Assembly (NCBI GenBank): GCA_963931515.1
Contig: OZ007022.1
Location: 1,408,327 to 1,472,326, forward strand
Direction: 5' to 3'
DNA length: 64,000 nt
DNA from: an uncultured Bacilli bacterium
GTDB taxonomy: Bacteria > Bacillota_I > Bacilli_A > RF39 > UBA660
Each line of letters opens with the position of its first letter. The first letter of the stretch is position 1. Made by a program: the position numbers and the translations under genes. Below the pieces are notes generated by a model that saw nothing but the letters and a program-made list of their open reading frames with translations, made no database searches and had not been told where the DNA came from. This document shows, one piece after another, positions 27,151-45,390 of this stretch.

Positions 27151-27447
27151 ATGAAGGAAACTTTAGAGAATGTTATGCTTATGGGATTAGGTGCGATGGT
27201 TATGACTAGTGAGAAAGCTAATGAGTTAAAAGAAGAACTTTTAAAAAAGGGTGAAGAAGCTTATGCACATGGTCAAGCTTTGAATGAGGAGTTAAAACAT
27301 AATATTGCAGATAAGATTAAAGAAAATGTGACGGTGACTGTGGAACCGGCTGACTTAACAAAAGAGGAACTTGCTTCTAAAATTAATGAACTTAGTGAAG
27401 AAGATAAAAAAGAAATTTTGAATTTACTTAAGAAAGATAAAAAATAA
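27151..27447 (+). CDS. phasin-like coiled-coil protein (COG3937-type)
   Basis: ATG 27151 follows GGAGGTGG. Contains LMGLGAMVMTSEKANEL and is coupled to the downstream ABC1 kinase gene. Confidence 0.6.
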   Translation: MKETLENVMLMGLGAMVMTSEKANELKEELLKKGEEAYAHGQALNEELKHNIADKIKENVTVTVEPADLTKEELASKINELSEEDKKEILNLLKKDKK

Positions 27448-29012
27448 TGTTAAGTAGTAAAGATAGATTAGTAGAGATTGTTCGTATTATTAAGAAATAT
27501 GATTTATTAAAGAAGATAAATCCACAAAATTTACGTTTGGCAATTGAGGAAGCTGGTCCAACATTTATTAAACTTGGGCAAATTTTGGCATCACGTGATG
27601 ATGTTATTCCTAAAGAATATTGTGATGAACTTTCACATTTACGAAATCAAGTAAAGCCGATGAGTTATGATAAAGTTTTGGAAATTTTAGATAGAGAATA
27701 TGATGGTAAAACGGAAGATATTTTTTCTAAAATTGATAAAGTTCCAATCGGTTCGGCTTCAATTGCAGAAGTACATCGGGCTGTTTTAAATGAAGGGGCA
27801 GAAGTTGTTATTAAGGTTCAAAGAGATAATATTTATGAACTTATGGCAATGGATGTGAAATTACTTAAGAATATAGTCGATATATTTAAAATTGATAAGA
27901 TTTTTGATTCAGTTTTTAATTTTAAAGATATTATTGATGAGATGTTTGAAACAGCTAAGGAAGAAATGAATTTCTTGATTGAAGCTTCACATACTGAGGA
28001 ATTTTATGAAAAGAATAAAGATGTTTTATATATTCGTTCACCAAAGGTTTATAACGAGTTTACGACTAGTAAAGTTTTGGTTATGGAATATATGGATGGA
28101 ATTAGAATAAATGATTTTGAGGCATTAGAAAAAGCTGGATATGACCGTGATGAGATTGGACAGAAATTAGCTGTTAATTATATTAAACAGGCACTTGAAG
28201 ATGGTTATTTTCATGCGGATCCACATACCGAAAATTTGAAAATTAAAGATGGTAAAATTGTTTATTTGGATTTTGGAATGATGGGTAGGCTTTCTTCACG
28301 TGATAGAGATCTTTTAAATCAATGTATCTTAGCTATTTTAAAAGATGATGTGACAGAAATTTCTCATATATTACTTGCTTTTGGTAAAACTAGGGGAACT
28401 ATAGATCATATGACTTTAAAGAATGATATTAAAAGAGTTTTAGATAAAAATAAGACTCAGGAGATGTCAAATATTGATGTTAAAGATTTTATGAATGATT
28501 TTTTAATGATGCTTTCTAATAATCATATTAGTTTACCTAGGGATGTTACAATGCTTATGCGTGGTATGATTGTACTTGAGGGTGTGCTTAGAAGTATTAG
28601 TCCAAATATTAATTTGATGCAGATATTTAGCAGTTATATTAAACCGAGTACAGCTATAAATAAGGAAAAGGTTAGTAAGTTATTACAAAAAGGTGTTGAA
28701 AGTAGTACTGATTTAGTTTATTTACCAAATGAGGTCCTTTCTTTTTTGAAGGGTGTTAATAGTGGAGAACTTAGATTTAATATAGAAATTAATGATTCTA
28801 AGCATCAGATGCGTAATTTAGAACAGCTTGTACATTTATGCTTGATTACAATTTTAGATGTGGCTTATATTTTAGGAACAAGTTTAATTGTTATGCAAAG
28901 TGATGATAAGTTGCCATTTATTTTTTATGTATATTTAATACTTGGCGGTATTTGTACAGTATGGATATTTTATAAAATGTTTACTAGTAAAATAAGAAAT
29001 AGGAGACGATGA
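27447..29012 (+). CDS. ABC1/UbiB family atypical kinase
   Basis: Contains FIKLGQILASRDDVIP, ASIAEVHRA, HADPHTENL and DFGMMG. C-terminal TM helices are present. Confidence 0.88.
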   Translation: MLSSKDRLVEIVRIIKKYDLLKKINPQNLRLAIEEAGPTFIKLGQILASRDDVIPKEYCDELSHLRNQVKPMSYDKVLEILDREYDGKTEDIFSKIDKVPIGSASIAEVHRAVLNEGAEVVIKVQRDNIYELMAMDVKLLKNIVDIFKIDKIFDSVFNFKDIIDEMFETAKEEMNFLIEASHTEEFYEKNKDVLYIRSPKVYNEFTTSKVLVMEYMDGIRINDFEALEKAGYDRDEIGQKLAVNYIKQALEDGYFHADPHTENLKIKDGKIVYLDFGMMGRLSSRDRDLLNQCILAILKDDVTEISHILLAFGKTRGTIDHMTLKNDIKRVLDKNKTQEMSNIDVKDFMNDFLMMLSNNHISLPRDVTMLMRGMIVLEGVLRSISPNINLMQIFSSYIKPSTAINKEKVSKLLQKGVESSTDLVYLPNEVLSFLKGVNSGELRFNIEINDSKHQMRNLEQLVHLCLITILDVAYILGTSLIVMQSDDKLPFIFYVYLILGGICTVWIFYKMFTSKIRNRRR

Positions 29013-29013
29013 T

Positions 29014-29826
29014 ATGAATAATATGAGTGAATATGAACCAAATCCAAAATTACAAAATTTAGTTAAACAACCACCAAAGGATAATAAGAAACTTATTATG
29101 ATTTTAGCTGGTGTAATTGCATTTTTAGTTTTAATTATTATAATTTTGGCTATGAGTGGTACAAGGGTTGTGGAAAAGGAAGTTGAGAAAAAACAGAGCT
29201 TGGATGAGATTACTTTGGAACTTGAGAATTTTATGGATGAAAATAAGTTAGATGCTTTAGATGCTTATGGTATGGATGGTATTGTAAGGGTTGCTATAAA
29301 TAAAATTTGTACAGGTGTTGACAATTGTACACAAATTGAAGGTGATGAAGTTACAAAATATATTAAGAATGTGTTTAATAAAGAGGTAACTTATTCAAAT
29401 ATTAATTGTGCGGTTAATGATGGAGTGCTTTATACGTATGATAGTGAAAATAATAGGTTTGTTTGGGATAGTAAGCATGCTAATCATGGAAGTTTACCGA
29501 CAGAGCCCCTTTATACTAAAGTAAATAGTATTAGAAGAGATGATGATAAGATAATTTTGGTTCTTAATAAATTATATTACGATCCGGTAAAAAGTGATTA
29601 TATAACTACAGATCCTGCTGGTATAAATCAGATTTATAATGCTAATGATTATATGCATACTACTGATAATGGTGAAGATATTGATTTAACTAAATTATCA
29701 GCGGCTTATGAAAATAATTTTGATAAATTAAAAAATACAGGAACTAGATATAGATATACTTTTGTTAAAGATGGTGTTAGATATATTTTAGAAAAATACG
29801 AAGTTCTTGGTGGAGAGGAAGAATAA
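29014..29826 (+). CDS. membrane-anchored hypothetical protein
   Basis: Single TM helix (LIMILAGVIAFLVLIIIILAM) followed by an extracellular domain. No family recognised. Confidence 0.6.
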   Translation: MNNMSEYEPNPKLQNLVKQPPKDNKKLIMILAGVIAFLVLIIIILAMSGTRVVEKEVEKKQSLDEITLELENFMDENKLDALDAYGMDGIVRVAINKICTGVDNCTQIEGDEVTKYIKNVFNKEVTYSNINCAVNDGVLYTYDSENNRFVWDSKHANHGSLPTEPLYTKVNSIRRDDDKIILVLNKLYYDPVKSDYITTDPAGINQIYNANDYMHTTDNGEDIDLTKLSAAYENNFDKLKNTGTRYRYTFVKDGVRYILEKYEVLGGEEE

Positions 29827-29933: not shown

Positions 29934-32096
29934 ATGAGTAAAGTAAAGTATTTTTTTGATAAGGTTTATTCAAAATTTAAAATAGGTTGTATTGTTATTT
30001 TGTTTATTTTTTTTGGAATACCTTTTATTTTTGGTTTTATTGGTTCTTTGTTTGAGTCTTTGAATGAGGAAGAAAAAATTTCTTTAGCAGATGGATTTAC
30101 TATTGAAAAATATAATGTAATTTTAGATGTTAAAGAAGATAATAAGGTTGATGTTACTGAAAATTTAACTGTTAATTTTACAAGTGCATATAAACATGGT
30201 ATTTATAAATATACGCCTGAGTGGCTAGAATATAAAGGTAAGGATGGTAAAGTTATAAAAAGAAAGTCTAATGTTTTAGATTATAGGGCGGATAATGATA
30301 TTTATACTGTGGATAGAGTTAATAAGAAAGCTAGGATAAAAATTGGTGATGCGAATGAGTATGTCAGTAAGGGTGAAAAAACTTATGTAATTAAATATAC
30401 TTATGATATGGGTAAAGATCCATTTAATGGGTTTGATGAGTTTATTTTTCATGCTTATGGAGATTACTGGGGAACGGAGATTAAGAATGCTTCTATAGAG
30501 GTAAATATGCCTAAAAGTATAGAAGGGTATAATGTTAACTTTTTTACTGATAAATATCGAGATGAAAATGTGAATGAAGCGGTTGATTTTTCTATAGATG
30601 GTAACACTTTAAAGGCTAATTTTAATGAAAATAAAAATTATGAACTTCAGTTAAAAAAATATTGTGAGAAACATTATAAACAATATGGTGAAGAGTGTGA
30701 TTATTCTGATTTTGAATATGATTATGAACCGCTTTCTAAATCACTTACGGTTGATGTTGAATTACCTGAAGGATATTTTAAAGGTGGAAGTTATAATTAT
30801 GGTTTTGGTTCAATATTTATTTCTATTTTGGTTTTTATTGTAACGGGTTATACGATTTATAAGTGGTTTAAATTTGGAAAAAATTATGCGAAGAATGTTC
30901 AGACGGTTGAATTTTATCCTCCTGAGGGTCTTAGTTCGGCAGAGATTGGATATGTTTATAATAAAAGACAAGCTAATAAGAAATTAACTATTTCACTTAT
31001 TGTTCAGTTAGCTAGTAAAGGATATATTAAAATAGATGAGATTAAAGATGATATTAAAATAACTAATTTGATGATTAAACCTAAAAAAATAGGATCGTTT
31101 GACGACATGTTACCTAAACGGGAGATAGAAGTTAAAAAAATAAAAGAAGCTGATGATAAATTAAGCAGATCAGAGACGACGATGATGGTTCATTTGTTTA
31201 AAAAAGGTGATGTTAAGAAATTAAAAACGAATATTAATAGATTTTTAAAGGTTAAAGATAGTTTAGTTAATGGTGGATATATTGAGGTTATTAGTGATAA
31301 TGAGGAAGAAAGATTAAAAGATATTAAGCAAAAAAGAAAAGCATATGATGATAGTGTTAAAAATTATGATAAACAAATGACAGAGTATAATGAAAAAATC
31401 TCTAAGATGCCGGAAATTAGTGTGTTTGAGAAAATTGTTTATGATAGGCTATTTAATTCTAAGGATGAAATCATTTTAAGTAAACACAAAACATTTTATA
31501 GGGCTTTTAGTGAGGTTGAAAAAACACTAAAAGATAATTTTAAAGATAAGGTTTACGATAAGACATCTAGTAAACAAAGGTTTTATGCTATAGCAAGGAC
31601 ATTACTTATTTTGATATTATGTATTATATCTTATAAAGTTATAGAAGATATGGATCCAAAGTTTAGTATTTTATATTATTTATCATTTGGGTGTATTTTA
31701 GTTAATATATTATTTACTACTTTGATGGGTAGAAAGACAAAATATGGTGAGATGATAAGTGCTAAAGTAATGGGATTTAGGGAGTTTTTGGTGACAGCGG
31801 AAAAATCTAAGTTAGAACAGTTGGTTTCTGAGAATCCTTATTATTTTTACAATATTTTGCCATATACTTATGTTTTAAATATTTCTAAGAAGTGGATTCA
31901 AAAGTTTGAAAATATTAAAATACCGGAAATGGATATGGGTAATTTTGATTATGGTAGTGACAATTTTTTCTATTCTATATATGATCATGTTTATTATCCG
32001 CCAAGTTCTTCTGGCTCTTCTAGTTCATCATGCGGTGGTGGCTGTTCATCATGTGGTGGTGGATGCTCTTCTTGTGGAGGCGGAGGGTCTTGGTAA
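29934..32096 (+). CDS. DUF2207 domain membrane protein with Ser/Cys/Gly-repeat C-terminal tail
   Basis: ATG 29934 follows GGGTGAGAG. It has an N-terminal TM helix, an extracellular domain and several C-terminal TM helices. The tail reads SSSGSSSSSCGGGCSSCGGGCSSCGGGGSW. Confidence 0.8.
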   Translation: MSKVKYFFDKVYSKFKIGCIVILFIFFGIPFIFGFIGSLFESLNEEEKISLADGFTIEKYNVILDVKEDNKVDVTENLTVNFTSAYKHGIYKYTPEWLEYKGKDGKVIKRKSNVLDYRADNDIYTVDRVNKKARIKIGDANEYVSKGEKTYVIKYTYDMGKDPFNGFDEFIFHAYGDYWGTEIKNASIEVNMPKSIEGYNVNFFTDKYRDENVNEAVDFSIDGNTLKANFNENKNYELQLKKYCEKHYKQYGEECDYSDFEYDYEPLSKSLTVDVELPEGYFKGGSYNYGFGSIFISILVFIVTGYTIYKWFKFGKNYAKNVQTVEFYPPEGLSSAEIGYVYNKRQANKKLTISLIVQLASKGYIKIDEIKDDIKITNLMIKPKKIGSFDDMLPKREIEVKKIKEADDKLSRSETTMMVHLFKKGDVKKLKTNINRFLKVKDSLVNGGYIEVISDNEEERLKDIKQKRKAYDDSVKNYDKQMTEYNEKISKMPEISVFEKIVYDRLFNSKDEIILSKHKTFYRAFSEVEKTLKDNFKDKVYDKTSSKQRFYAIARTLLILILCIISYKVIEDMDPKFSILYYLSFGCILVNILFTTLMGRKTKYGEMISAKVMGFREFLVTAEKSKLEQLVSENPYYFYNILPYTYVLNISKKWIQKFENIKIPEMDMGNFDYGSDNFFYSIYDHVYYPPSSSGSSSSSCGGGCSSCGGGCSSCGGGGSW
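32025..32087 (+). repeat. three tandem 21-nt units encoding SSCGGGC
   Basis: The units are TCATCATGCGGTGGTGGCTGT, TCATCATGTGGTGGTGGATGC and TCTTCTTGTGGAGGCGGAGGG. The GG-rich codons double as SD-like sequences for the overlapping rSAM ORF. Confidence 0.85.
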
Positions 32097-33079
32097 AAAA
32101 GTTTGTTTTGCAGTGGCATTTGAGTGAAAATTGTAATTTGAAATGTTTACATTGTTATCAAGAAAATCATAAACCTATTCAGTTAGAGTTCGATAAGTTA
32201 GTTATAATATATAAGCAGTTTAAAGAACTTTTAAATAAAAAGAAAATGAAGGGGCATATCAATATTACTGGTGGTGAGCCTCTTTGTAATCCTTATTTAT
32301 TTAAACTATTGGATTTAATTAAAGAGGATAGTGATTTTATTTCGTTTTCTATTTTAACTAATGGAACACTTATTAATGAAAAGATAGCTAAAAAGATTAA
32401 ATCTTATAATCCTTTATATGTTCAAGTTAGTTTAGAAGGTGGCAGAAAAACTAATGATTATATTAGAGGTAAAGGAACTTATAAGAAAATTGCGGAGGGT
32501 ATTGTTAATTTAAGAAAAGAAGATATATTTACTTCAATTTCTTTTACGGCGACGAGTTTAAATTATAAGGAGTTTCCGAAGGTTGTTCGTTATGCGAAAA
32601 AGTATGATGTTAATAATGTTTGGTCAGATAGATTTATACCACTTGGTGATTCTGATAAGTCTTTAGCTTTGAATTATGAACAGACTAGAGAATATTTAGA
32701 AATTATGAATAAGGAAAGAAATAAGTTAAAGAAGATTAAAAATAATAAAACAACTATTTCAATGTATAGGGCATTACAGTTTCAAATGACAAATGATTTT
32801 GCTTATGGATGTACAGCTGGTGATACATTACTTACAGTAATGGAAAATGGCGATTTGGTTCCTTGCCGAAGAATGCCGATTGTTATAGGTAATTTATTTG
32901 ATAGAAGTATGTACGATTTATATACAAACAGTGATGTTTTAAAAACTTTAAGGAAGAAGAAGATACCTGATGAATGCATAAATTGTGAACATTCTGAGGT
33001 TTGTCATGGTGGATTAAAGTGTTTGACATATGCGATGTATAATGACTTAAACTATAAAGATTATGGGTGCAATTTGTAA
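32090..33079 (+). CDS. radical SAM / SPASM domain protein
   Basis: The CNLKCLHCY motif is Cx3Cx2C. The SPASM-like motifs are CX12GX4C (CTAGDTLLTVMENGDLVPC) and CINCEHSEVCHGGLKC. The start is uncertain. TTG 32090 lies 9 nt after GGAGG and overlaps the DUF2207 stop by 7 nt. ATG 32030, 32051 and 32063 are alternatives. Confidence 0.85.
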   Translation: MVKKFVLQWHLSENCNLKCLHCYQENHKPIQLEFDKLVIIYKQFKELLNKKKMKGHINITGGEPLCNPYLFKLLDLIKEDSDFISFSILTNGTLINEKIAKKIKSYNPLYVQVSLEGGRKTNDYIRGKGTYKKIAEGIVNLRKEDIFTSISFTATSLNYKEFPKVVRYAKKYDVNNVWSDRFIPLGDSDKSLALNYEQTREYLEIMNKERNKLKKIKNNKTTISMYRALQFQMTNDFAYGCTAGDTLLTVMENGDLVPCRRMPIVIGNLFDRSMYDLYTNSDVLKTLRKKKIPDECINCEHSEVCHGGLKCLTYAMYNDLNYKDYGCNL

Positions 33080-33089
33080 TATTTTCGAA

Positions 33090-33116
33090 AGTTAATCAAT
33101 TGTGATTAGCTTTTTA
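33090..33116 (+). terminator. rho-independent terminator after the rSAM gene
   Basis: AGTTAATCA (33090-98) pairs with TGATTAGCT (33103-11) with one G-U pair, followed by TTTTT. Confidence 0.65.
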
Positions 33117-33120
33117 TTAT

Positions 33121-33156
33121 TTTACGTCAAAGGTGTGTTGAGTATGTTTATATATA
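33121..33156 (+). promoter_or_regulatory. third, orphan copy of the Rpn-gene upstream box
   Basis: TTTACGTC...GTATGTTTATATATA. It is followed by AAAGGAG and a 4-codon ORF (MSKL*). Confidence 0.4.
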
Positions 33157-33516
33157 ATGTTTTAAAGGAGTGGATTGTTAAAATGAGTAAGTTATAATTA
33201 TGGTTTACCTTTAAAAAAATTAGTCTAGTATGGAACAATAGTGCTAAACCGAACTAATTTATCAAAATTGTTATCAGTATAATATTTATTTTATTAATAT
33301 GCTATTTTTTTGAAAAATAAATTTTATTTATTCTTTATTATCTTATGATATATAAAATCATTTTTTCTTTAAGAATACTATATCCTGTTTTTAATAATTA
33401 TGTAACTATTTTTATAACAGCAACAAATATTCAAACTAATGTACAATTTTAACTTTGCTTATGAGAAAATGTATGTTATAGGGAATTTGAATGTAGGAGT
33501 TAGAAAGTGAGCTTGA

Positions 33517-33551
33517 TAAAAAATCAGTTGTTAAGAAAATCTTAACAACTG
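33517..33551 (-). terminator. orphan terminator-like hairpin (minus-strand polarity)
   Basis: Perfect 11-bp stem: CAGTTGTTAAG (33525-35) pairs with CTTAACAACTG (33541-51). The U-run exists only on the minus strand, as the A-run at 33517-23. Confidence 0.5.
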
Positions 33552-33560
33552 CAGGTGATA

Positions 33561-33580
33561 ATAAACACTATAGTGTTTAT
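33561..33580. promoter_or_regulatory. perfect 20-bp palindrome ATAAACACTATAGTGTTTAT upstream of promoter
   Basis: The palindrome is exact and lies 13 nt upstream of the -35 TTGACT of the hydrolase gene. Confidence 0.45.
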
Positions 33581-33593
33581 TAGATGTTGTGAT

Positions 33594-33622
33594 TTGACTT
33601 TTTATTAAAAAAAGTATAGTAT
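33594..33622 (+). promoter_or_regulatory. sigma-A-type promoter of the alpha/beta hydrolase gene
   Basis: TTGACT (33594-99), a 17-nt spacer, then TAGTAT (33617-22). Confidence 0.55.
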
Positions 33623-33644
33623 AAAGCGACAAAGGAGTGATATT

Positions 33645-34415: not shown

Positions 34416-34441
34416 GTAAATATGCTTATGAATTTTTTTTT
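34411..34441 (+). terminator. rho-independent terminator
   Basis: CATAAG (34411-16) pairs with CTTATG (34425-30), followed by a T9 run. Confidence 0.7.
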
Positions 34442-34541
34442 ACTAGGAATTTGCTTTGCAAAAGTAAAAAAGGCGTGGTTGTAATAAATACACTAAAAAA
34501 GACGGCAATTAAATCCGTTAAAAATCAAGAATAGATTGTTT

Positions 34542-34754
34542 TTAATAATCAACTTCAACAGTAATAGGTTTCATTTTGATTTTACATTTATCGCATAGAA
34601 AAATAGGGTTGTCTTTAAACGTTTCGTTATTCATTTTTTGAAATGTACTTTGTGGAATTAGTTTTGTATTTCCACATTTAGGACATAAAAACTTGATACT
34701 CATAGAAAAGTTTATGTTTTGTTTTTTGTTAATTTTTCTTAACATAGAACTCAT
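34542..34754 (-). CDS. small zinc-ribbon protein (IS-associated)
   Basis: CPKCG ... CDKC, 70 aa. It lies 15 nt downstream of the transposase gene on the same strand. Confidence 0.55.
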   Translation of the reverse strand: MSSMLRKINKKQNINFSMSIKFLCPKCGNTKLIPQSTFQKMNNETFKDNPIFLCDKCKIKMKPITVEVDY

Positions 34755-34769
34755 ATACTATTCACTCCT

Positions 34770-36017
34770 TCACGAGACTTCAAATAAAGGCTCCATTATT
34801 TGATTACATTTAGGACAAATAATGGGTATGCGATTAAATGAAGTTAAAATGAGATTTTTCCATTTAAGCAACTGTCGTTTAAATTTAATTTTTTCTTTAG
34901 AAATAACATATTTAATATTATCACATAATTTATTTGATTTGTTATAAAAACCGTAACTTCTAATAGATTTAAAACCAGTAGGTAATAGATGACATAATAA
35001 TTTAGTAATAAATTCAAAAACAGAAACAGTCTGTTCGTGATATTTTTCTTCTTTGTGGTCTCTATAAAAGAAAGTAACATTTTCGCCATCATAATTAATA
35101 ATTCTAGTTTCTGCCATGGCTGGTCTAGAACAGTATCTAGTAAGATAACGAATTAAATCTTCTATTGATTTGAACTTGTAACCATCATCTTCTAATCTAT
35201 TATTTACATAAAAACCATTTTTGTATTTTAGATACATAATATTTTTAGTTTTAGAAAACTTTTGTTTACCAAAATGGTTTTCCATTTTATCAAGCAAAAT
35301 TTTCATAAATCTTTTAGATAAAGCATCATAATTAAAATAATCATATTTTTTATAATTTTTAAATTTGTCAAAAACACATTCAGCAATAATAACATGAATA
35401 TGAGTATTAAAGTTTAAAGGTCTACCAAAAGTATGAAGAAAAGCGAAGAAACCAGGGGTATATTTTAAATTATATTTTCTAGTTTTTTTCTTTTTGACTT
35501 TACCATTAACGATAGAGTATAAAGTATCATTAACAGATTCAAATAATAAACTAGTATCATTTAGATTATGAAAAAGCCAAGGACATAAAACATCTGGAAT
35601 AGTAAATGTAATATGTCTATGTTTAACGTTTATACATTTTTCTAAAATATTTTCAGTTCTAATTTTTTGAGTCTTAATACCACAAGAAGAACACAGTTTT
35701 CCCTTACAAGTATGATGTGAAAAAATGATTTCTCCACAATCTTTACAACAATAAACAGTAGCTCCTAACTTATGATTAGAACAAGAAATAACTTTATTAA
35801 CTTCTTTATTAGCATTAGGTCTTGTATTATCTATAGTGACTTTATATTTACTATAATAATTGTCCCAATGATCTTCAAAAATTCTAGCAATAGTACCAGT
35901 GGATTTAAAATTATTATTATTTTCCATAATAATAAATCCATCCTTATCAAATTTATTATCATCAGTTATATGCTTTTTAGCCCATGAATTAAAATTAACT
36001 ATGTCTACATGTTTCAT
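34770..36017 (-). CDS. IS91 family (HUH Y2) transposase
   Basis: The N-terminal Zn-binding domain carries CCKDCG and CKGKLCSSCG. The HUH-like motif is NTHIHVII, and the Tyr region is RYLTRYCSRP. A C-terminal CPKC is present. Confidence 0.8.
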   Translation of the reverse strand: MKHVDIVNFNSWAKKHITDDNKFDKDGFIIMENNNNFKSTGTIARIFEDHWDNYYSKYKVTIDNTRPNANKEVNKVISCSNHKLGATVYCCKDCGEIIFSHHTCKGKLCSSCGIKTQKIRTENILEKCINVKHRHITFTIPDVLCPWLFHNLNDTSLLFESVNDTLYSIVNGKVKKKKTRKYNLKYTPGFFAFLHTFGRPLNFNTHIHVIIAECVFDKFKNYKKYDYFNYDALSKRFMKILLDKMENHFGKQKFSKTKNIMYLKYKNGFYVNNRLEDDGYKFKSIEDLIRYLTRYCSRPAMAETRIINYDGENVTFFYRDHKEEKYHEQTVSVFEFITKLLCHLLPTGFKSIRSYGFYNKSNKLCDNIKYVISKEKIKFKRQLLKWKNLILTSFNRIPIICPKCNQIMEPLFEVS

Positions 36018-36099
36018 ACCTTAATTATAACATGTATAATCTTGGACATAAAGATTTCAAACTAAGATTTTGATTTCTTTATGTTTTTTGCTATTATAA

Positions 36100-37520
36100 C
36101 AAGTATCGGTAAAGACGAATTATAACAGGTACTTCGAGTACGTTTTTTTGAAAGTCTGCCATATAATTATTTATTAATTCGGTTGTAGATAATGGAACTT
36201 TAAAGTTCGGATGATTAAGCATGTAGGAATGTAGGTAATTTAATATGGTATTAGCCGAAATATTAACGAAAGGAGATTTTTATGAAACATATCTTAAGTT
36301 TTGATATTGCCAAAGGAAAAAGTGTTTATTGTTTTATTGATGAATTAAAAAATACTATTATTGATGCTACTACTATTGAACATAATAAAACTGATTTTGA
36401 TAATTTATTCAATTTAATTAAAGATTATCCTAATTTAACGGTTATTATGGAATCAACTTCTATTTATCATCTGCCAGTTGAAGATTACTTTAGATTTAAA
36501 GGTATAGAAACAATTGTTATTAATCCTAAACTTGTTAAACAATTTAAAGATACTTTGAACAAATCCAAAACCGATAAACTAGACTGCTTTAAAATAGCTA
36601 GATGTTATTTGGGTACTATTGACAATTTTTATTACAAAAACGATGAATATTTCATGTATAATCCACTAGCTAGACAATATTGGTCATTACTTGAAGGTCA
36701 AACAAGATTAAAAAATAGATATAGACAATTAATTGAGATTATTTTCCCAGAATTTACCCTTATTTTTAATGATTTGTATGACGATTTGGCTTTAAATTTT
36801 ATACATGATTTTCCTCATCCATCGTTATTTGTTAATAGACGAAGTGATTTTCTAATAAACTATTTAAAAAATAAAAATGGTACTACTCAAGCATATAGAT
36901 TTAAAAATAAAGTTTTAAAAATGAAAAAATTAGCTTCTAATTCATTATGTTCTGAATCATTTAATTCCATACAAGTTCAAAATTTAATTCAAGTAATTGA
37001 ACTGATTATGTATTACAAATTAGAAATTAATAAAATTAAAAATCAATTAATCAATGAAATGAGAAACAAAAAATTATTCAAAATTATTAATTCTATTCCT
37101 GGATTTGGTGATTTTTCTACTGCCTTATTTTTAGCTGAAGTTGGAGATATAACAAGATTTGATAATAAATATCAATTCATATCATTTATTGGAATTGATT
37201 CTGTTACTTCACAATCTGGAGTTAGTGCTTATCATGGTCCTATTTCCAAAAGTGGATGTAAGTTTGGTAGAACCATTTTATTTAATGTGGTTACAATATT
37301 ACTTCAAATATCTGCACGTACAGATAAAACTAATCCAATATATTTATTCTTTAGAAAAAAACAATCCGAAAGTAAACATCATTACAAGTGTATAATCGCA
37401 TGCGAAACCAAATTATGCAAGATTATATACAAATTATGTTCTTCGAATTGTTTATATGAAAACAAATAGTTGAATTACCTAAATTTTTTTTAATTGAGGA
37501 AACTCAGTTCTTTTTGTCAT
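36100..37520 (+). mobile_element. IS110 family element; ends not determined
   Basis: Carries the transposase gene plus about 180 nt of noncoding left end. IS110 elements lack classical IRs. Confidence 0.45.
36282..37469 (+). CDS. IS110 family DEDD transposase/recombinase
   Basis: The RBS is AAAGGAG. The N-terminal DEDD domain has LSFDIAKGKS and IMESTSIYH. The C-terminal Transposase_20 motif is IPGFGDFSTALFLAEVGDITRF. Confidence 0.9.
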   Translation: MKHILSFDIAKGKSVYCFIDELKNTIIDATTIEHNKTDFDNLFNLIKDYPNLTVIMESTSIYHLPVEDYFRFKGIETIVINPKLVKQFKDTLNKSKTDKLDCFKIARCYLGTIDNFYYKNDEYFMYNPLARQYWSLLEGQTRLKNRYRQLIEIIFPEFTLIFNDLYDDLALNFIHDFPHPSLFVNRRSDFLINYLKNKNGTTQAYRFKNKVLKMKKLASNSLCSESFNSIQVQNLIQVIELIMYYKLEINKIKNQLINEMRNKKLFKIINSIPGFGDFSTALFLAEVGDITRFDNKYQFISFIGIDSVTSQSGVSAYHGPISKSGCKFGRTILFNVVTILLQISARTDKTNPIYLFFRKKQSESKHHYKCIIACETKLCKIIYKLCSSNCLYENK

Positions 37521-37591
37521 GCTTATAATACCATAAATTTTATGATTTGACAAAACTTAGATAATCAAAAAATGTCCCCTTTAGGGGACGT

Positions 37592-37619
37592 ATGACAAAA
37601 TTTATTTTGTCATTTTTTT
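37592..37619 (+). terminator. rho-independent terminator
   Basis: ATGACAAAA (37592-600) pairs with TTTTGTCAT (37605-13), followed by a T-run. It is preceded by a GTCCCC-TTTA-GGGGAC hairpin (37574-89). Confidence 0.65.
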
Positions 37620-37674
37620 ATTTATTTTGAAGATTGGCATGGATTTTGTCCATTTCTATAAACAAAACTTTAGG

Positions 37675-38130
37675 TTAATTAGTAGATTTATTAATGTTTT
37701 CGTGAAGAGAACCTTTAAGTTCTTTTATTTTTCTAGAAACAGTAGTTCTAGAAATAATTGTATTTCTAATAGCATGTCTACCAGCAGAAGCCATATTGTT
37801 TTCCATGGCATATTTGACAAGTTTATATTCAGCCATATCAGTCATTCTTTGATAAGGTTTAAGACCGAGTATGTCTCTTATATAACAAAATGAAGTTTTA
37901 TCTTTTTTATGCTTGTAGAAAGTAAAATTAACATCAATATAACCTATAGAAGTAAGTAAAGTTCTATTTCTTGTTTCCTTAACAGAATATTTTTCTTTCC
38001 TATTTTTAGATTTTTTATACTCTAAATCAATACCTTCTATAAAAGCTACTAATAATTTTTCTGTAAGTTCATTTCCTTTAGATACAATATAGCTTTCTAG
38101 TTCATATAAGTTAGTTTTATTTTCAGAATT
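37675..38130 (-). pseudogene. ISLre2 (UPF0236) family transposase fragment
   Basis: My translation of the minus strand reads ...KYSVKETRNRTLLTSIGYIDVNFTFYK...ILGLKPYQRMTDMAEYKLVKYAMENNMASAGRHA...ISRTTVSRK*. This matches the N-terminal part of the family. There is no start codon and the DDE domain is missing. Confidence 0.6.
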
Positions 38131-38406
38131 TTATTAAAATTGTTTAAAAAAGTTTTAATTAATGGTAAAATGTTTATGTGATTAATTTCTTTCTATTTTT
38201 TGGTTAATTTAATTATAATTTATTTTCGGGGATTAATCACTCTTTTTTTATGCTTTTTTATTTCCCGTACTTTTGAAACGCGACCATGCCATAACTAATT
38301 TGACTTTTCTATTTTTTAGTTATAAAATATATTCTAATCGAATGAGCGAGGATTTATTCATAAAATTAGAAATTGGATTTTGTATATTAAAAAGAGGAAG
38401 GAAAAA

Positions 38407-39372
38407 ATGAGAATATATCATATAATTGATCATAATGGATTTGGTTCAATTCATAAGTTGTTAATACCGCTGTGTGAAAAATATAGTAATAATATTTTAT
38501 ATACTCCATATTTAAAAAAATATCGTCTAACAAAGGAAGCAATACAAAAAATAAATAATGATAAAAATAGTATAGTTATAATACATTCTACAGGAAGAGA
38601 CAAAACAATATATATAGATCAATTAGATAAATATTTTGATGATAAAAAAATTTTTATTTTTATGCATGTTTCAATTAATTACGAAGTGTTCAAAAAGAGA
38701 GAAAATTTTATAGCAAGATTATATAATATATGTAAAGAAAAACACATATTAATATTAACTCCATCAAAAGAAGTTACGAATCAATATTTAAAATATGGAT
38801 TCGATGCAAAAACTATTCAAATTGGAATAAGAAATTTAAATAATGATTACTACAGAAAAAATATAAAAAGATTAGAAAAATATTATAATAAATTTGTAAC
38901 TGTATGTGCTAGTGAAAGCCCAGCATATTATGATGCAAAAGGAATAAGCAATTTCGTTAAGTTAGCAAAAAAGGAAAAAATAACAAATGATATTTTAGTA
39001 GCAGGAGTAAATAGTTATGTTAAGAAAAATAATGATGTGTTTATGAAAAAGTTTAATGAAGATGATTTTTTAAATGTCTTATATCATTCAAAAGCATATA
39101 TTCAATTGTCAATATTTGAATCATACAATATAACGGCGATTCAATCAAAAAGATTTAAGATACCGACGATTTTATTAAGTGCTGAAGGGAATGAATCCTG
39201 TATGATGGGAAATACATTTAGAAATATAAATGAGATTTGCCATAAAATTCGTGAAGTTAATAACAATTTAATAGATAATAAAACAATAAAAGAATTATAT
39301 AATGATAGTATAATAAGAGAATCATTAAGCAGATTTAATAGTGATTTAATTAAAATGACTGAGGAGGTGTAA
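38407..39372 (+). CDS. GT-B fold glycosyltransferase-like protein
   Basis: ATG 38407 follows AGAGGAAGG. The N-terminus MRIYHIIDHNGFGSIHKLL and the C-terminal ESYNITAIQSKRFKIPTILLSAEG resemble the GT4 E-x7-E region. Confidence 0.55.
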   Translation: MRIYHIIDHNGFGSIHKLLIPLCEKYSNNILYTPYLKKYRLTKEAIQKINNDKNSIVIIHSTGRDKTIYIDQLDKYFDDKKIFIFMHVSINYEVFKKRENFIARLYNICKEKHILILTPSKEVTNQYLKYGFDAKTIQIGIRNLNNDYYRKNIKRLEKYYNKFVTVCASESPAYYDAKGISNFVKLAKKEKITNDILVAGVNSYVKKNNDVFMKKFNEDDFLNVLYHSKAYIQLSIFESYNITAIQSKRFKIPTILLSAEGNESCMMGNTFRNINEICHKIREVNNNLIDNKTIKELYNDSIIRESLSRFNSDLIKMTEEV

Positions 39373-39373
39373 C

Positions 39374-40270
39374 ATGGAACCGTTTGTTTCTTTAAATAAT
39401 AGTTCTGAATCTTTAGAAAAATCAATTTCATTAATTTATAGTGCATTTATTTCAAACGAAGATTTTTATTCAGATAAAGAACAATATGTTTTTTACGGGC
39501 ATAATTTACCTAAAATAACTAAAAATCTAAATGTTTCAGGAACTATTGGATTTTATATTGACAATTTTTTTGACGAAAATTGGTCACCAATTCACAGTTA
39601 TGAAGAATTATGGGAGTTAAAAGAGATAGTTATTAATAATCTTGTTATTAATGGTAGATTATCATATAGAACATCAGAAAAATTATTAAATAACAAAGAA
39701 CTTTATATTAAAGTTATATCAAAATTGCCTGTTGATTTTATTTTTCCACAATTCTATAGTAATTTGTTATCAGTTTTTATAGATAAGTATCCAAATGTTC
39801 ATTTAAAAAAATTAGCTTTAGAAGAAAATATAGAAGGAATTTATACTCATTTACCAAGTGAAAAAAATTTTTATAGTATATATGGCTTAGAGTCTGATGG
39901 TAGAGTTGGACATTATTATATGAATTTAAATGTAAACAATAAAAAATATATTCAAAGAATTGTACATTTATATAGAGATTTAAATAAAAGACTCTCTTTA
40001 TCAGGTAATGTGGGTATTTTGTTAGCAGCAATAGATTATAACATGGAAAATGAAAAATATATTTTGGGATATAGAGAAAGGAAAAATCATTTACGTAAAA
40101 GTAGAAATTTTGCCTTAGACCAAATGACTCCTGCAAAAAAGATAATTGAACCTAAAAATCATTATTTTAATTCTTTTTATGATGGGTTAACTAGTTCAAA
40201 TGAAGAAAAAATTTCGAATGAGGTAGTACAAAAAGTATTTAAAAAAGTAATGAAGGAGTTGAATTATTAA
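39374..40270 (+). CDS. hypothetical protein (possible ATP-grasp-like C-terminal half, very tentative)
   Basis: Coupled to the upstream gene (TAAC ATG) with RBS GAGGAGGTG. The segment LSGNVGILLAAIDYNMENEKYILGYRERKN is loosely reminiscent of an ATP-grasp C-terminal motif. Confidence 0.5.
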   Translation: MEPFVSLNNSSESLEKSISLIYSAFISNEDFYSDKEQYVFYGHNLPKITKNLNVSGTIGFYIDNFFDENWSPIHSYEELWELKEIVINNLVINGRLSYRTSEKLLNNKELYIKVISKLPVDFIFPQFYSNLLSVFIDKYPNVHLKKLALEENIEGIYTHLPSEKNFYSIYGLESDGRVGHYYMNLNVNNKKYIQRIVHLYRDLNKRLSLSGNVGILLAAIDYNMENEKYILGYRERKNHLRKSRNFALDQMTPAKKIIEPKNHYFNSFYDGLTSSNEEKISNEVVQKVFKKVMKELNY

Positions 40271-40271
40271 A

Positions 40272-40847
40272 ATGAAACTTATACTTACTTCCACAGATTT
40301 TTTAACAGATAATTCGAGGAATAAAATATTGTCTGAATTAAAAGATGTATCTAAGTGCAAAATATTATATATTCCAAATGAGAATGCAACGATAGAAAAA
40401 ATAAAAAGCAATAAATATTATGATAGATTGCAAGAATATGGATTTAAACGGGAAAATATATATGTTTTTAATTATAAAGAACCTAATAAATTTAAAAACT
40501 TAAATATTGATGCAATCTATATAGGCGGTGGCAATACTTTCAGTATGTTAAAAATATTGAAAGATACAAAGTTTGATAAGGAAATTATCAAATATGTAAA
40601 AAATGGGGTAACTTATATAGGTGGTAGTGCAGGAGCACATATTGTTACAAAAAATATCAAACATGTATTACCGTTTGATAATAATTCAGTTGGATTAAAA
40701 GATTATAATGGTTTAGGATTATTTGATGGAATTTTATTTTGTCATTATACAGATGATAGAAAGAAATACGTTGATGATTGTAAAAAAAGAAATAAGTATA
40801 ATGTAAGCATATTGAGAGATGATGAAACTATTATTTATGAAGAATAA
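40272..40847 (+). CDS. peptidase S51 family (dipeptidase E-like)
   Basis: Contains IYIGGGNTF, the nucleophile motif GGSAGAHIV and a later FCHY His. It starts 1 nt after the upstream stop. Confidence 0.75.
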   Translation: MKLILTSTDFLTDNSRNKILSELKDVSKCKILYIPNENATIEKIKSNKYYDRLQEYGFKRENIYVFNYKEPNKFKNLNIDAIYIGGGNTFSMLKILKDTKFDKEIIKYVKNGVTYIGGSAGAHIVTKNIKHVLPFDNNSVGLKDYNGLGLFDGILFCHYTDDRKKYVDDCKKRNKYNVSILRDDETIIYEE

Positions 40848-41011
40848 ATAAAGACAATTTACTTTCATTATAGGCAATTCTTTATAACTATTTTTTAGGC
40901 AAGTTAGTAACATTATGTGGAGTAAAAGTGTCAATGTCAAGTAGTGTTGGTGTGACTAAAAACTAATGATAAATGAAATTGTTAAGATGGTCAAGAATTG
41001 ACCTTCTTTTA

Positions 41012-41345
41012 TTATGCTTTGATTGGATTAAGTAAGCCTTTAATAAGCATAACGCTAGCTTTTAAATGTTTAAATTTTCTATAACCACAAGCAGTATGGT
41101 TAATTTGCTTGATAAGATTATTCATCCCTTCAGTCCTACCGTTTGAATATTCATAGTCAAAAGCATTAACAATATATTCTTCCATATTTCTAAAGGTTTT
41201 TAGACTTTTTTTCATATATTTAGAAATGTTTTTATTGTGGTGATGAAGTTAATGATGGATAATGTTTAAAAATTTATCTTTATCTCTGCTGTCGCTAGCT
41301 TTTATAATACCTTGATAAACTTGATAAGTATTATAAAACTTTCCA
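41012..41345 (-). pseudogene. ISL3 family transposase C-terminal fragment
   Basis: The minus-strand translation reads ...YNTYQVYQGIIKAS...*...MKKSLKTFRNMEEYIVNAFDYEYSNGRTEGMNNLIKQINHTACGYRKFKHLK, which is the ISL3 C-terminal signature. It is interrupted by a stop and lacks the N-terminal part. Confidence 0.7.
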
Positions 41346-41399
41346 TCTGTATTAATTAGTTAAATTACAATATCAATCTATGAAACTTTTTTTAAAACA

Positions 41400-41604
41400 T
41401 TTAAAATATTTCTTTTTATCAGAAAGTTTATCTTCATTTTTAAGTATTAATTTCCAGTGTTTTTAGTGACATAATGATTTTTAATTTTTCTAGAGATAGT
41501 AGTGCAGTTTTTGCTTATTAATGTTCATATTTCTTTAAATGATTTATTTTGGTTTAAATATTTTTCTATTTCCATTCTTCATCTAGTGATAGATGCTTAA
41601 ACAT
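41400..41604 (-). pseudogene. IS30-family transposase N-terminal fragment (frameshifted)
   Basis: The minus strand reads MFKHLSLDEEWK* followed, in another frame, by ...SKNCTTISREIKNHYVTK. This resembles the HTH region of the two intact IS30 genes. Multiple stops are present. Confidence 0.5.
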
Positions 41605-41733
41605 AATTCATACTCCTTTCTTATAAGTACTATCAGTGCATTTATTATATTGTTTTACCTGGTAATTGCAACTTTTATTATTTTTAGGGTTGCATTTAGT
41701 TTTACATCTTACTAACTTTAAATTTTCGTGAAA

Positions 41734-41754
41734 TGAAAAAGTAAATTACAGTTT
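41734..41754. repeat. outer 21-bp inverted repeat, left arm
   Basis: TGAAAAAGTAAATTACAGTTT is the perfect reverse complement of 43398-43418. Confidence 0.85.
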
Positions 41755-41910
41755 TATAAAGTGAAATTTGAATGTATGAGAAACGTCCATAATACGGGCG
41801 TTTTTAAGTACTCTAATGATTTGAAATTTGATTAAAAATAGTGTAAAATACAAAGTATGTTAGAAATTTAACCACGACGAAAAGACAAAAGGCTATAGAA
41901 TTTTAAAAAA

Positions 41911-43347
41911 TGTAAGACTAAATTCCTTTTGCTGAATGTTTGTTATTATGGTATTAGATGGGTGTTTCTAACTTTTATGATAAGAATTATTTATTCTTAT
42001 TATGTTTTATGAGATAAGGTTTTAGGGTAACCTCATCTCTTTTTATTTCTTTAATATTTAGTAAATCTAAAATTTCTTTGCCTCTGTTTGGGTTTTCGAA
42101 AGTACTCATCATAAAACTAAATACTTCACAAGGTGTTTTGCCTTTTAAAGACTTTCTAGGAGTAGAGTTAATATGTGAGAACATTAGATTTAAATCATCT
42201 TGAGTGATATTAGATATATCCATTTCATTAGGAATAATATCTCTAATATAGTTATGAGTATTTTCTACATGTGGTTTTTGACTTGATTGATAAGCATCAC
42301 AATAAAAAATATTAGTTCTAAATTCTCCGGTTTCTTGATTAAATTCAAATAAATCAACTTTTTCGAACTCAATACCTCGGTCAGTAAGAATTAAAGGAAA
42401 TAATTCTCTATATAAATCATGACCAAGTTTATTTTCTAAATCATCTAAGGCTTTGGCCATGGATTCAGAAGTTTTTTTTTCATGAAGAAATCCAATCATA
42501 AGGCCAGAGCCTTCAAAATAAAAAGTTTGAATATAAGGTCCAGATTTAGAATTTAAAACAGTATCCATTTCAGTGGTTGGAACAATAGGATTATCTTCTT
42601 TAAACTTTAAATAATCTTTATATTTATGGTTTTCATAATTGGCAGGTTCTTTTCTTTTTTTATATTTATGTTTAAATTGTTTACGATTAACTTGTTCTTT
42701 TAAAGAAAAATTATCAATACCATATTCTTTAAATACTCCCATTTCAATGTAATTGTAAAGAGTTTTAATACATTGTTTAATTTCATTATGAGAAGATTTA
42801 ATTTGATAAAGAGATTGTCCTTGGTCTAATAATGGTTTAAGAATATTCGCCAGTTCTTTTGCTTCCAAAGTGGTCAAATTGATTCCTTCTCTAAAATCAA
42901 CTAAATCTTTTTTATATTCGTCGTCTGCTTGAGCTGCATAATAAAAATATTTATCTAAATGACATTTAGCTATATTAGGGCATTTATTACAAGCACCAGG
43001 AGATTTATCTCTTTTATTACATTTTATTTCTTCATATTTATAACATCTTTTTTTACAGCCTCCACATTCTTGCCTATGAACACAGATGGATGGATAAATA
43101 AATTGATTTCTTGGTTTAAAAGTTCTATGTTTTCTAATTTCTTTAGCTATAGTTGTAGGATCTTTACCAATAGTTCTAGCAATGTCAACTTTATTTGAAC
43201 GATTTTCTATCCCAGTTTGAATAATTTTTCTTTCATCTAAAGTTAAATGCTTATTATTATGGATTTGTTTTGACATAATAATATACCTCTCTTTCACTGT
43301 CAAAACACCCATGTGATATATTATATAAAAAAGAATTTAGTCTTACA
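41911..43347 (-). mobile_element. IS30 family insertion sequence, copy 1 (about 1.44 kb)
   Basis: The terminal IRs are TGTAAGACTAAATTC (41911-25) and GAATTTAGTCTTACA (43333-47). They extend to about 20 bp with one mismatch and enclose a single transposase ORF. Confidence 0.8.
41987..43276 (-). CDS. IS30 family transposase
   Basis: The start at 43276 follows GAGAGG. It has the HTH TTIAKEIRKHR and a Cys-rich linker. The DDE region has LTDRGIEF and HVENTHNYIRD. Confidence 0.9.
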   Translation of the reverse strand: MSKQIHNNKHLTLDERKIIQTGIENRSNKVDIARTIGKDPTTIAKEIRKHRTFKPRNQFIYPSICVHRQECGGCKKRCYKYEEIKCNKRDKSPGACNKCPNIAKCHLDKYFYYAAQADDEYKKDLVDFREGINLTTLEAKELANILKPLLDQGQSLYQIKSSHNEIKQCIKTLYNYIEMGVFKEYGIDNFSLKEQVNRKQFKHKYKKRKEPANYENHKYKDYLKFKEDNPIVPTTEMDTVLNSKSGPYIQTFYFEGSGLMIGFLHEKKTSESMAKALDDLENKLGHDLYRELFPLILTDRGIEFEKVDLFEFNQETGEFRTNIFYCDAYQSSQKPHVENTHNYIRDIIPNEMDISNITQDDLNLMFSHINSTPRKSLKGKTPCEVFSFMMSTFENPNRGKEILDLLNIKEIKRDEVTLKPYLIKHNKNK

Positions 43348-43367
43348 AATTCTTAACTGGATTTTTA

Positions 43368-43387
43368 TGTAAGACTAAATTCTTGTC
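43368..43387 (+). repeat. solo extra copy of the IS30 left IR
   Basis: TGTAAGACTAAATTCTTGTC lies 20 nt outside the right IR, in the same orientation as the left IR. Confidence 0.7.
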
Positions 43388-43397
43388 TAATATATTG

Positions 43398-43418
43398 AAA
43401 CTGTAATTTACTTTTTCA
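43398..43418. repeat. outer 21-bp inverted repeat, right arm
   Basis: AAACTGTAATTTACTTTTTCA is the reverse complement of 41734-41754. Confidence 0.85.
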
Positions 43419-43889
43419 GTTTACATGAATTTTTTTGTTAAAAAAATAATAAAAAAGGATTGAATTAAAAAGAAAATTCCCGTAAAATTATAAAAGAACA
43501 TTTAAAAGAGTAAAATCCCAAAATGAAAAGGATTTTTTAGGAAAAAATTGTAAAAATCAAAAAAATATGATAATATATAGAACATTAAATGAAATTATTG
43601 CATGCAAAAAAGTGTACGACCTTTAGTCTTTTCGCGACTAAGTTCCCGCACATGAGTCAATATGATTGGCTTGTTTGCCAACGAATAAGCGGATTATAAA
43701 ATCTGCCCATTCGTTGATAGTTAAATATTTTCATTTAAAATATCAATTATAAATTTGAGTTGTTGTATTGCAACTTGAGAAGATGATTCAGTAGAAGATT
43801 CATCTGTTAATTTATTTAAAATATCTTGAAGAAAATATATTAAATCTTGAATATTAAAAGTACCTAATAATGAATCTGAGTAGACAATA

Positions 43890-45119: not shown

Positions 45120-45263
45120 TTTAAAAATACCTCCAACTAGATGACAAACAAACCAATGACATATATAGTACACTTAAAATTAAAAAAAGCAAATTAATAA
45201 ATATTATAAGTAATTTAATAACAAGCAAAGGTGAACTTTGCTTGTAACATTTATTATATTATT

Positions 45264-45324
45264 TGAAAAGAGATGTCAATGGTCTAGATAAACTCACTTC
45301 GTTCGCCATTGACATCTCTTTTCA
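45264..45324. repeat. 61-nt palindromic element with 19-bp perfect arms
   Basis: TGAAAAGAGATGTCAATGG (45264-82) pairs with CCATTGACATCTCTTTTCA (45306-24). The loop is 23 nt. Confidence 0.9.
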
Positions 45325-45390
45325 CAACTAAATTCTCGTATAAAATAAAACGGGAACTTTCTAATTTAATTAATAAATAATAAAAAAGTG

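Follow-up and report, generated by a model that had tools for sequence, protein, structure and literature searches.

In a 64,000-nucleotide stretch of DNA from an uncultured Bacilli bacterium of the RF39 lineage (assembly GCA_963931515.1, contig OZ007022.1; hereafter the window), we found that a membrane protein of the DUF2207 family ends in a Cys-rich tail whose coding sequence overlaps the gene for a radical S-adenosylmethionine (SAM) enzyme with a SPASM domain, and that enzymes of the same clade lie beside Cys/Gly/Ser-tailed membrane proteins of several kinds in distantly related hosts. The tail is probably the substrate of the enzyme. This idea was put forward in an earlier reading of the window from its letters alone (the original prediction) and is now supported by comparative genomics, from which we infer the topology, chemistry and biological role proposed below. 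To our knowledge, no explanation has been offered for the odd Gly-rich C-terminal tails of the DUF2207, TPM and TIGR04222 families, which are very widely distributed membrane proteins without a known function; an enzyme family that tracks Cys-bearing tails on unrelated scaffolds offers a concrete and cheap way into tail function.

Scanning one genome per species with a 10-sequence alignment of the enzyme yielded 80 loci, at each of which tailed neighbours were sought in all six frames as open reading frames (ORFs) whose last 25 residues are mostly Gly, Ser or Cys. In this first sample, 23 of the 27 enzymes in the window's clade adjoin a Cys/Gly/Ser-tailed protein, compared with 0 of 54 related enzymes outside it, where the sole tail match is a Cys-free RGG protein. 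The 27-member clade, with support of 99-100 in the Shimodaira-Hasegawa-like approximate likelihood ratio test (SH-aLRT), holds all 23 enzymes that have a Cys-tailed neighbour (Fisher p = 2e-16, in a test that counts loci as independent although many are related). Because of this kinship, a better argument lies in how many different partner architectures and gene orders occur. The partners have four architectures: full-length DUF2207 (the window and loci L042-L047), the N-terminal DUF2207 domain with a transmembrane segment (DUF2207-N; ~300 or 545 aa), TIGR04222, and a TPM-domain protein; their tails include CGGGCGGCGGCGGCGG, (CSS)5CGGGGAD, GCGSGCGSGCGGGGAD and CGGGSSCGGGGCGGGGSSSF. The tailed gene lies immediately upstream of the enzyme gene, immediately downstream of it, or convergent to it. 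Among the hosts are Bacilli, Clostridia, Thiotrichaceae, a betaproteobacterium, Syntrophobacteraceae, Spirochaetota and one archaeon; the linkage spans Bacillota, Pseudomonadota, Desulfobacterota, Spirochaetota and Archaea, and the enzyme subclades sort by partner type. Since the same enzyme clade pairs with DUF2207, truncated DUF2207, TIGR04222 and TPM proteins, the tail is their common element. The original prediction had named preferential adjacency to DUF2207 genes as a test; the preference is real for Cys-tailed membrane proteins, but the partner is not specifically DUF2207.

As a replication, 400 more genomes were searched with a profile hidden Markov model, which brought in four new members of the clade: two adjoin Cys-tailed TIGR04222 proteins, and two are in genomes that encode such a protein elsewhere. 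In total, a tailed partner adjoins the enzyme in 25 of 30 clade members and is encoded in trans in the genomes of three others; at L061, for example, the Cys-tailed TPM protein is encoded on a different contig from the enzyme.

Two partner subgroups have features of their own. In a betaproteobacterial metagenome-assembled genome (L055:7018-8946), one enzyme gene is convergent with a tandem of two TIGR04222 paralogues, each having a long Gly/Cys tail, and a single enzyme may serve two substrates there. The TPM subgroup comprises four loci (L059:3550-5187, L060:3402-5051, L063:3560-5191 and L065), and in each of them a conserved ~545-aa zinc-ribbon protein with an N-terminal CPxC...CxxC motif is encoded directly upstream of the Cys-tailed TPM gene.

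The association is specific to Cys. The window's genome (1.52 Mb) encodes only two Gly/Ser-tailed proteins, both of the DUF2207 family, and Cys occurs only in the tail of the enzyme-adjacent one. The second paralogue, which lies outside the window (L031, G000:C1:718809-720755; 648 aa from stop to stop), has no enzyme neighbour and a Cys-free tail, SSGGSSGGGSAGGGSGGGGGGSW, and is a natural internal control. Across 61 relatives there are 16 distinct DUF2207 tails, all terminating in GSW or SSW; those adjacent to the enzyme have 5-6 Cys (3/3), and those not adjacent have none (13/13). Among TPM paralogues in enzyme-bearing genomes, the adjacent tails are Cys-rich in 4/4 and the non-adjacent ones Cys-free in 10/11, the single Cys-bearing exception being on another contig. 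The Clostridia genomes each carry a single copy of DUF2207-N, so they offer no paralogue contrast. The earlier statement that Gly/Cys/Ser tails are common in DUF2207-type proteins stands for Gly/Ser tails, but in every set examined tails with Cys went together with the enzyme.

The tail is also conserved beyond the rest of its protein. Eight orthologues carry exactly the same 23 residues, yet in the DUF2207 body they share only 40-62% identity with the window's protein, and the tail codons show synonymous variation at 22 of 23 positions and replacements at 0 of 23. This codon pattern indicates that the tail is under purifying selection.

The anatomy of the two genes (Table 1) bears out what the original prediction had read from the sequence. 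The membrane protein scores above the gathering thresholds of both DUF2207 models, PF09972 (74.4 bits; gathering score 24.4) and PF20990 (DUF2207_C; 105.3 bits; gathering score 33), and ends in SSSGSSSSSCGGGCSSCGGGCSSCGGGGSW, its tail being encoded, as predicted, by 21-nt units in tandem (3.0 copies, 32028-32091). Likewise, the tail Gly codons supply a Shine-Dalgarno-like sequence: GGAGG at 32076-32080 lies within the tail coding sequence, 9 nt upstream of TTG 32090, which is itself inside the DUF2207 gene and overlaps its TGG-TAA end by 7 nt. An ATG or TTG stands exactly at the equivalent position in 8 of 9 orthologous junctions, the two differing by whether the tail's last Ser is encoded by TCA or TCT, a synonymous change; in the ninth, the enzyme gene has its own ATG 5 nt past the DUF2207 stop. 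Close homologues of the enzyme are annotated at 329 or 323 aa. The in-frame ATGs that the original prediction placed further upstream do exist (e.g., 32030), but they read the tail DNA out of frame and show no conservation at the protein level. Since a start codon is kept at the orthologous position, comparison of the junctions gives good support to a predicted start at TTG 32090 and to translational coupling of the enzyme gene to the DUF2207 gene. Weak evidence for co-transcription comes from one chicken-gut "metagenomic RNA-Seq" run, whose low-depth contigs cover both genes and include a 207-nt contig bridging the junction (31946-32151), with DNA carry-over a possible source.

Table 1. Features of the overlapping gene pair (positions in the window)
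Feature	Position	Strand	Basis
DUF2207 membrane protein gene (724/720 aa)	29922 (TTG) or 29934 (ATG)..32096	+	Table-11 ORF listing, Pfam
Tail coding sequence, SSCGGGCSSCGGGCSSCGGGGSW (23 residues, 5 Cys; proposed substrate)	32025..32093	+	21-nt tandem repeat; conservation
GGAGGCGGAGGG, Shine-Dalgarno-like, from tail Gly codons	32076..32087	+	Read directly
Radical SAM/SPASM enzyme gene (329 aa)	32090..33079	+	Pfam Radical_SAM + SPASM
CX3CX2C motif, C15/C19/C22, SAM-binding [4Fe-4S] cluster (predicted)	32132..32155	+	Invariant in alignments A1-A4
SPASM region, C241/C259/C296/C299/C305/C311/C327, two auxiliary clusters (predicted)	32810..33070	+	Invariant in clade alignment A4

Four transmembrane helices are predicted in the DUF2207 protein (residues 21-39, 294-312, 556-574 and 583-601), and their Lys/Arg flanks put the N-terminus and the C-terminal 123 residues in the cytoplasm. 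In this predicted topology, the tail is within reach of the enzyme. Hydropathy and the positive-inside rule likewise predict a cytoplasmic tail for the DUF2207, DUF2207-N and TPM forms and give an ambiguous result for TIGR04222.

The enzyme belongs to the radical SAM superfamily (PF04055, 84.8 bits versus a cut-off of 29.5) and to its SPASM subgroup (PF13186, 32.8 bits versus 21.5, residues 241-300), as had been read from its motifs: CNLKCLHCY (C15/C19/C22), C241-x12-G254-x4-C259, C296INC299EHSEVC305HGGLKC311 and C327. Compared with the SPASM pattern CX9-15GX4C...CX2CX5CX3C...C, its last spacing is x5 instead of x3, and cluster binding is predicted. An AlphaFold2 model (mean predicted local distance difference test score, 92.9) most resembles anSMEcpe, an anaerobic sulfatase-maturating enzyme (anSME), with a template modelling (TM) score of 0.79, followed by SuiB, SkfB, TigE and PqqE. 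Only 14 residues precede the CX3CX2C motif, leaving no space for an N-terminal recognition element (RRE) of the kind used by maturases of peptides that are made on ribosomes and modified after translation (RiPPs). With neither an N-terminal RRE nor a small precursor, the enzyme falls outside the RRE-dependent RiPP maturases, including the sactipeptide, ranthipeptide and SCIFF (six cysteines in forty-five residues) types.

We compared ten enzymes with NCBIfam: that of the window, those of seven clade members that have a tailed partner, and those of L062 and L064. No model reached its cut-off in any of them, which argues against an established family with an unrelated substrate, an outcome the original prediction had allowed for. 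In all ten proteins the best matches were the models for SbtM (TIGR04082) and the ACGX-system radical SAM enzyme (TIGR04340), at ~130-165 bits versus cut-offs of 350-400; these models ranked first and second in 7/10 and among the top four in 10/10, with SbtM never lower than third and the two models interchangeable in order. Both are tied to Cys-Gly motifs (PMC9204691). The window enzyme itself scored 145.2 bits against SbtM (cut-off 350), covering only positions 198-497 of the 516-position model, and 143.6 bits against the ACGX model (cut-off 400), with no ACGX-repeat peptide adjoining it. Its score was 113.6 bits against the PapB model (cut-off 340) and 65.2 bits against that of the anaerobic sulfatase maturases (TIGR03942; cut-off 349), to which the likeness is structural only; the CrpC family (TIGR04463) was not among the best 25 of its 71 NCBIfam matches.

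An exhaustive HMMER search for homologues returned 434 clusters (50% identity) at E <= 1e-30. In trees of 81-98 radical SAM enzymes, the window enzyme, which the original prediction had proposed to place among the SPASM maturases, falls in a clade of its own (SH-aLRT 98-100%); SbtM and the ACGX enzymes group with each other, apart from this clade, and the deeper branching order is poorly supported. SbtM appeared as sister of the clade with 81% support when it alone was added, a placement that vanished once the ACGX enzymes were included. Among distant homologues, the only fusions are duplicated radical SAM modules or a likely mis-join. Two relatives in the genus (G006:C25 and G017:C8; L004, L007-L011) each carry three tandem radical SAM/SPASM paralogues, part of a different system and with 28-29% identity to the enzyme of the window.

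Which other substrate could the enzyme have? When flanking ORFs were clustered all against all, no third gene proved to be conserved across the clade, nor did any protease or transporter; the only recurrent neighbours are subgroup specific, namely LemA, the zinc-ribbon protein of the TPM subgroup, and nucleotidyltransferase-like and NifS-like proteins. The last of these, a NifS/IscS-like cysteine desulfurase, is encoded near the pair in three loci (L046:7280-8320, L044 and L062), which may be coincidence or may reflect Fe-S supply for the enzyme. Genes for oxidative enzymes that depend on multinuclear non-haem iron (MNIO enzymes; PF05114) are absent from 21 of 22 enzyme-bearing genomes, including that of the window, so that there is no competing maturase in them.

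The alternative that survives best, although we consider it unlikely, is that the two proteins are partners without the tail being a substrate. The tail would then dock the enzyme, carry Fe-S clusters or metals, or take part in electron transfer, and the enzyme would be recruited to the membrane to act on a lipid, a cofactor or another protein. The linkage data fit any tight functional partnership, Cys/Gly repeats are able to bind metals or clusters, the desulfurase gene lies near the pair in those three loci, and anSME, the closest structural match, has a separate protein as its substrate. However, no other conserved gene or small ORF offers a source of substrate, the nearest family models describe maturases of Cys-containing peptides, and a seven-Cys SPASM domain is typical of enzymes that bind substrate Cys. 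Moreover, every residue of the tail is invariant, including the Gly/Ser spacing, as would be expected more of a site that is recognized or modified than of a generic metal patch.

A second alternative is that the enzyme matures an unannotated small RiPP precursor nearby, the DUF2207 protein being an immunity protein, an exporter or an unrelated neighbour. Most SPASM maturases do use short peptides, and one enzyme just outside the clade (L167:5254-9926, genome G619) adjoins a 65-aa ORF ending in NWCFGCTNCNCN; with a second radical SAM-like ORF nearby and a third further away, that locus looks like a conventional small-peptide RiPP cluster. Within the clade, however, we scanned 2.5 kb around each of 27 enzymes for ORFs encoding 18-110 aa, four or more of them Cys, and found none in the window, L042, L043 or L047 and none conserved elsewhere, the few in L044-L046 lying on the opposite strand and mostly within annotated genes. 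The lack of an RRE and of a conserved protease or transporter also speaks against a small precursor, and we regard this explanation as very improbable. Inherited synteny or chance, with the tail Cys as compositional noise in a low-complexity sequence, can practically be dismissed: the DUF2207-subclade loci are related (enzyme identity, 61-95%), and gene order alone proves little there, but the linkage recurs across phyla, from Bacillota to Archaea, in four architectures and three gene orders, the tails of non-linked paralogues are Cys-free (13/13 for DUF2207 and 10/11 for TPM), and the tail amino acids are invariant despite saturated synonymous change.

Several observations weigh against the tail as substrate, in addition to the kinship among loci that inflates the Fisher test. 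Three enzyme-tail pairs are unlinked within their genomes, and L062 and L064, both long branches, have no tailed partner; L049, whose locus ends at a contig end, is outside the 30 members counted. A TIGR04222 search of the genomes of L049, L062 and L064 gave no match, and control genomes gave none either. At L045 (376-494, labelled a Faecalimonas sp. metagenome-assembled genome), the tail is degenerate, CSSYGGGGSSSRGGGCSSCGGGGSW, with two Cys replaced and the overlapping enzyme gene intact, which may reflect relaxed selection or a tolerated variant. The cytoplasmic location of the tail was derived by a simple calculation from hydropathy and the positive-inside rule, and the tail of TIGR04222 proteins has been predicted in print to be periplasmic (PMC12452194). 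Finally, because the clade does not group specifically with SbtM in the deep phylogeny, its chemistry cannot be inferred from relatedness.

If the tail is the substrate, the overlapping genes would encode an enzyme and its substrate. The DUF2207 protein would be anchored in the membrane, its C-terminal tail (SSCGGGC three times, then GGSW) facing the cytoplasm, and the enzyme, made from the same mRNA through coupling at the TTGGTAA overlap, would bind the tail itself, needing neither leader peptide nor RRE. Oxygen-independent 5'-deoxyadenosyl radical chemistry would then alter the tail Cys. Because the tail consists of only Cys, Gly and Ser, few products are plausible, and the ranthionine-type acceptors Asp, Asn, Thr and Gln are ruled out. 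The Cys could become 5-thiooxazoles, as in the action of SbtM on Gly-Cys motifs (-4 Da per Cys); they could form sactionine thioethers from Cys-S to C-alpha of Gly or Ser (-2 Da per link); or they could be oxidized to formylglycine in the manner of anSME. We slightly favour a thiooxazole or a thioether over formylglycine, a choice that sequence does not decide. The thiooxazoles made by SbtM on Gly-Cys/Sec are marked by the -4 Da shift and absorbance at 304 nm (PMC9204691). The SPASM domain of the clade has seven conserved Cys, the same number as in CteB and CrpC, for which the free iron of one auxiliary cluster has been proposed to bind substrate Cys (PMC13692751). The product would be a membrane-anchored, Cys-derived and probably metal-binding appendage.

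A more general proposal is possible but considerably less secure. The clade may represent an undescribed O2-independent maturation system of anaerobic bacteria and archaea, in which an RRE-less radical SAM/SPASM family turns Cys in the cytoplasmic tails of LemA-associated envelope proteins (DUF2207, TIGR04222 and TPM) into thiooxazole- or thioether-type groups, giving a membrane-anchored metal-binding or redox appendage, as an anaerobic counterpart of the MNIO enzymes.

The closest parallels are the proposed MNIO-TIGR04222 pairing and CrpC/CrpA. A 2025 survey based on bioinformatics proposed that MNIO enzymes encoded alongside act on TIGR04222 proteins whose Ser/Gly tails are rich in Cys (Microb Genom 2025, PMC12452194); it reports many Cys-tailed TIGR04222 genes without an MNIO neighbour and does not mention radical SAM, DUF2207 or TPM partners. 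As in the window, the gene for an enzyme (there DUF692, MbnB/TglH/ChrH) stands beside that for a multi-pass membrane protein with an unstructured, Cys-studded Ser/Gly tail as the proposed substrate, members whose tails have no Cys have no such enzyme, and TIGR04222 is a partner in both cases. In contrast, MNIO enzymes are O2-dependent non-haem iron enzymes, whereas a radical SAM/SPASM enzyme is O2 sensitive. The window's genome does not hold an MNIO-TIGR04222 system, and the resemblance is functional.

Further known maturases share features with the window enzyme. SbtM (TIGR04082; Lewis et al. 2021, reviewed in PMC9204691), which acts with SbtA in a thio(seleno)oxazole RiPP system, is likewise a radical SAM/SPASM enzyme, works on Cys or Sec in a Gly-rich GGUG/Gly-Cys motif, and has an N-terminal LQWH-x4-C-x-L-x-C-x-HCY core in common with it. 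Unlike the window enzyme, SbtM has an N-terminal extension of ~200 aa and a small-peptide substrate, and it falls in a separate clade. The enzymes of the ACGX-repeat system (TIGR04340, a family defined by bioinformatics) are similar in size, lack an RRE and have partners with repeated small-residue-Cys-Gly motifs; however, they form a separate clade, and their partners are peptides of 59-132 aa (stop to stop) with acidic spacers rather than membrane proteins. CrpC of Methanococcus voltae, an RRE-containing radical SAM/SPASM enzyme, installs thioethers on the full-size soluble Cys-repeat protein CrpA (ACS Bio Med Chem Au 2026, PMC13692751). CrpC/CrpA and QhpD/QhpC resemble the window pair in that a seven-Cys SPASM enzyme acts on a full-sized Cys-rich protein encoded alongside, which in those systems has been shown by experiment. 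CrpC differs in its family (TIGR04463), its RRE, the leader-like N-terminus and soluble repeat architecture of its substrate, and ranthionine links to Asp/Gln-type acceptors; in the window pair there is no RRE, Ser is the only acceptor side chain, and the proposed substrate is a membrane-protein tail. Last, anSMEcpe (PDB 4K36-4K39) also lacks an RRE, has a protein substrate and oxidizes the beta-carbon of Cys or Ser, but it has eight SPASM Cys and targets the CxPxR motif of sulfatases, none of which is present here.

Maturases of Cys-rich sequences are thus already known, and the new element would be a radical SAM/SPASM maturase of such sequences that acts on the tail of a membrane protein without an RRE. 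Full-text literature searches found no description of the enzyme/Cys-tail pairing, in line with the original prediction. If the reading is correct, the tails of integral membrane proteins, bound with neither leader nor RRE, would be a new substrate class for radical SAM/SPASM maturases, the pair would provide an anaerobic counterpart to the MNIO-TIGR04222 proposal and perhaps, in anaerobes of the gut and of sediments, a new modification resembling a cofactor, and the widespread Gly-rich tails of the DUF2207, TIGR04222 and TPM families would have a first biochemical handle.

The surroundings of the pair suggest that it is gained or lost as a whole. Upstream in the window (27447-29826) are genes for an ABC1/UbiB-type kinase and for a 270-aa protein without a family match (p270). 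At this same ABC1-p270 site, members of the genus have either both the enzyme and the Cys-tailed DUF2207 protein (G000, G017, G565 and G004) or neither (G006, G011, G025 and G036). Since the ABC1-p270 context is retained in members without the pair, the pair behaves as an insertion/deletion unit. Downstream, the stop codon of the enzyme gene is followed by ~560 nt of AT-rich non-coding DNA (33080-33644), an alpha/beta hydrolase gene and a cluster of insertion sequence (IS) elements (34441-45330; IS91-like, IS110 and others), a mobile-element-rich neighbourhood that is consistent with the pair being accessory.

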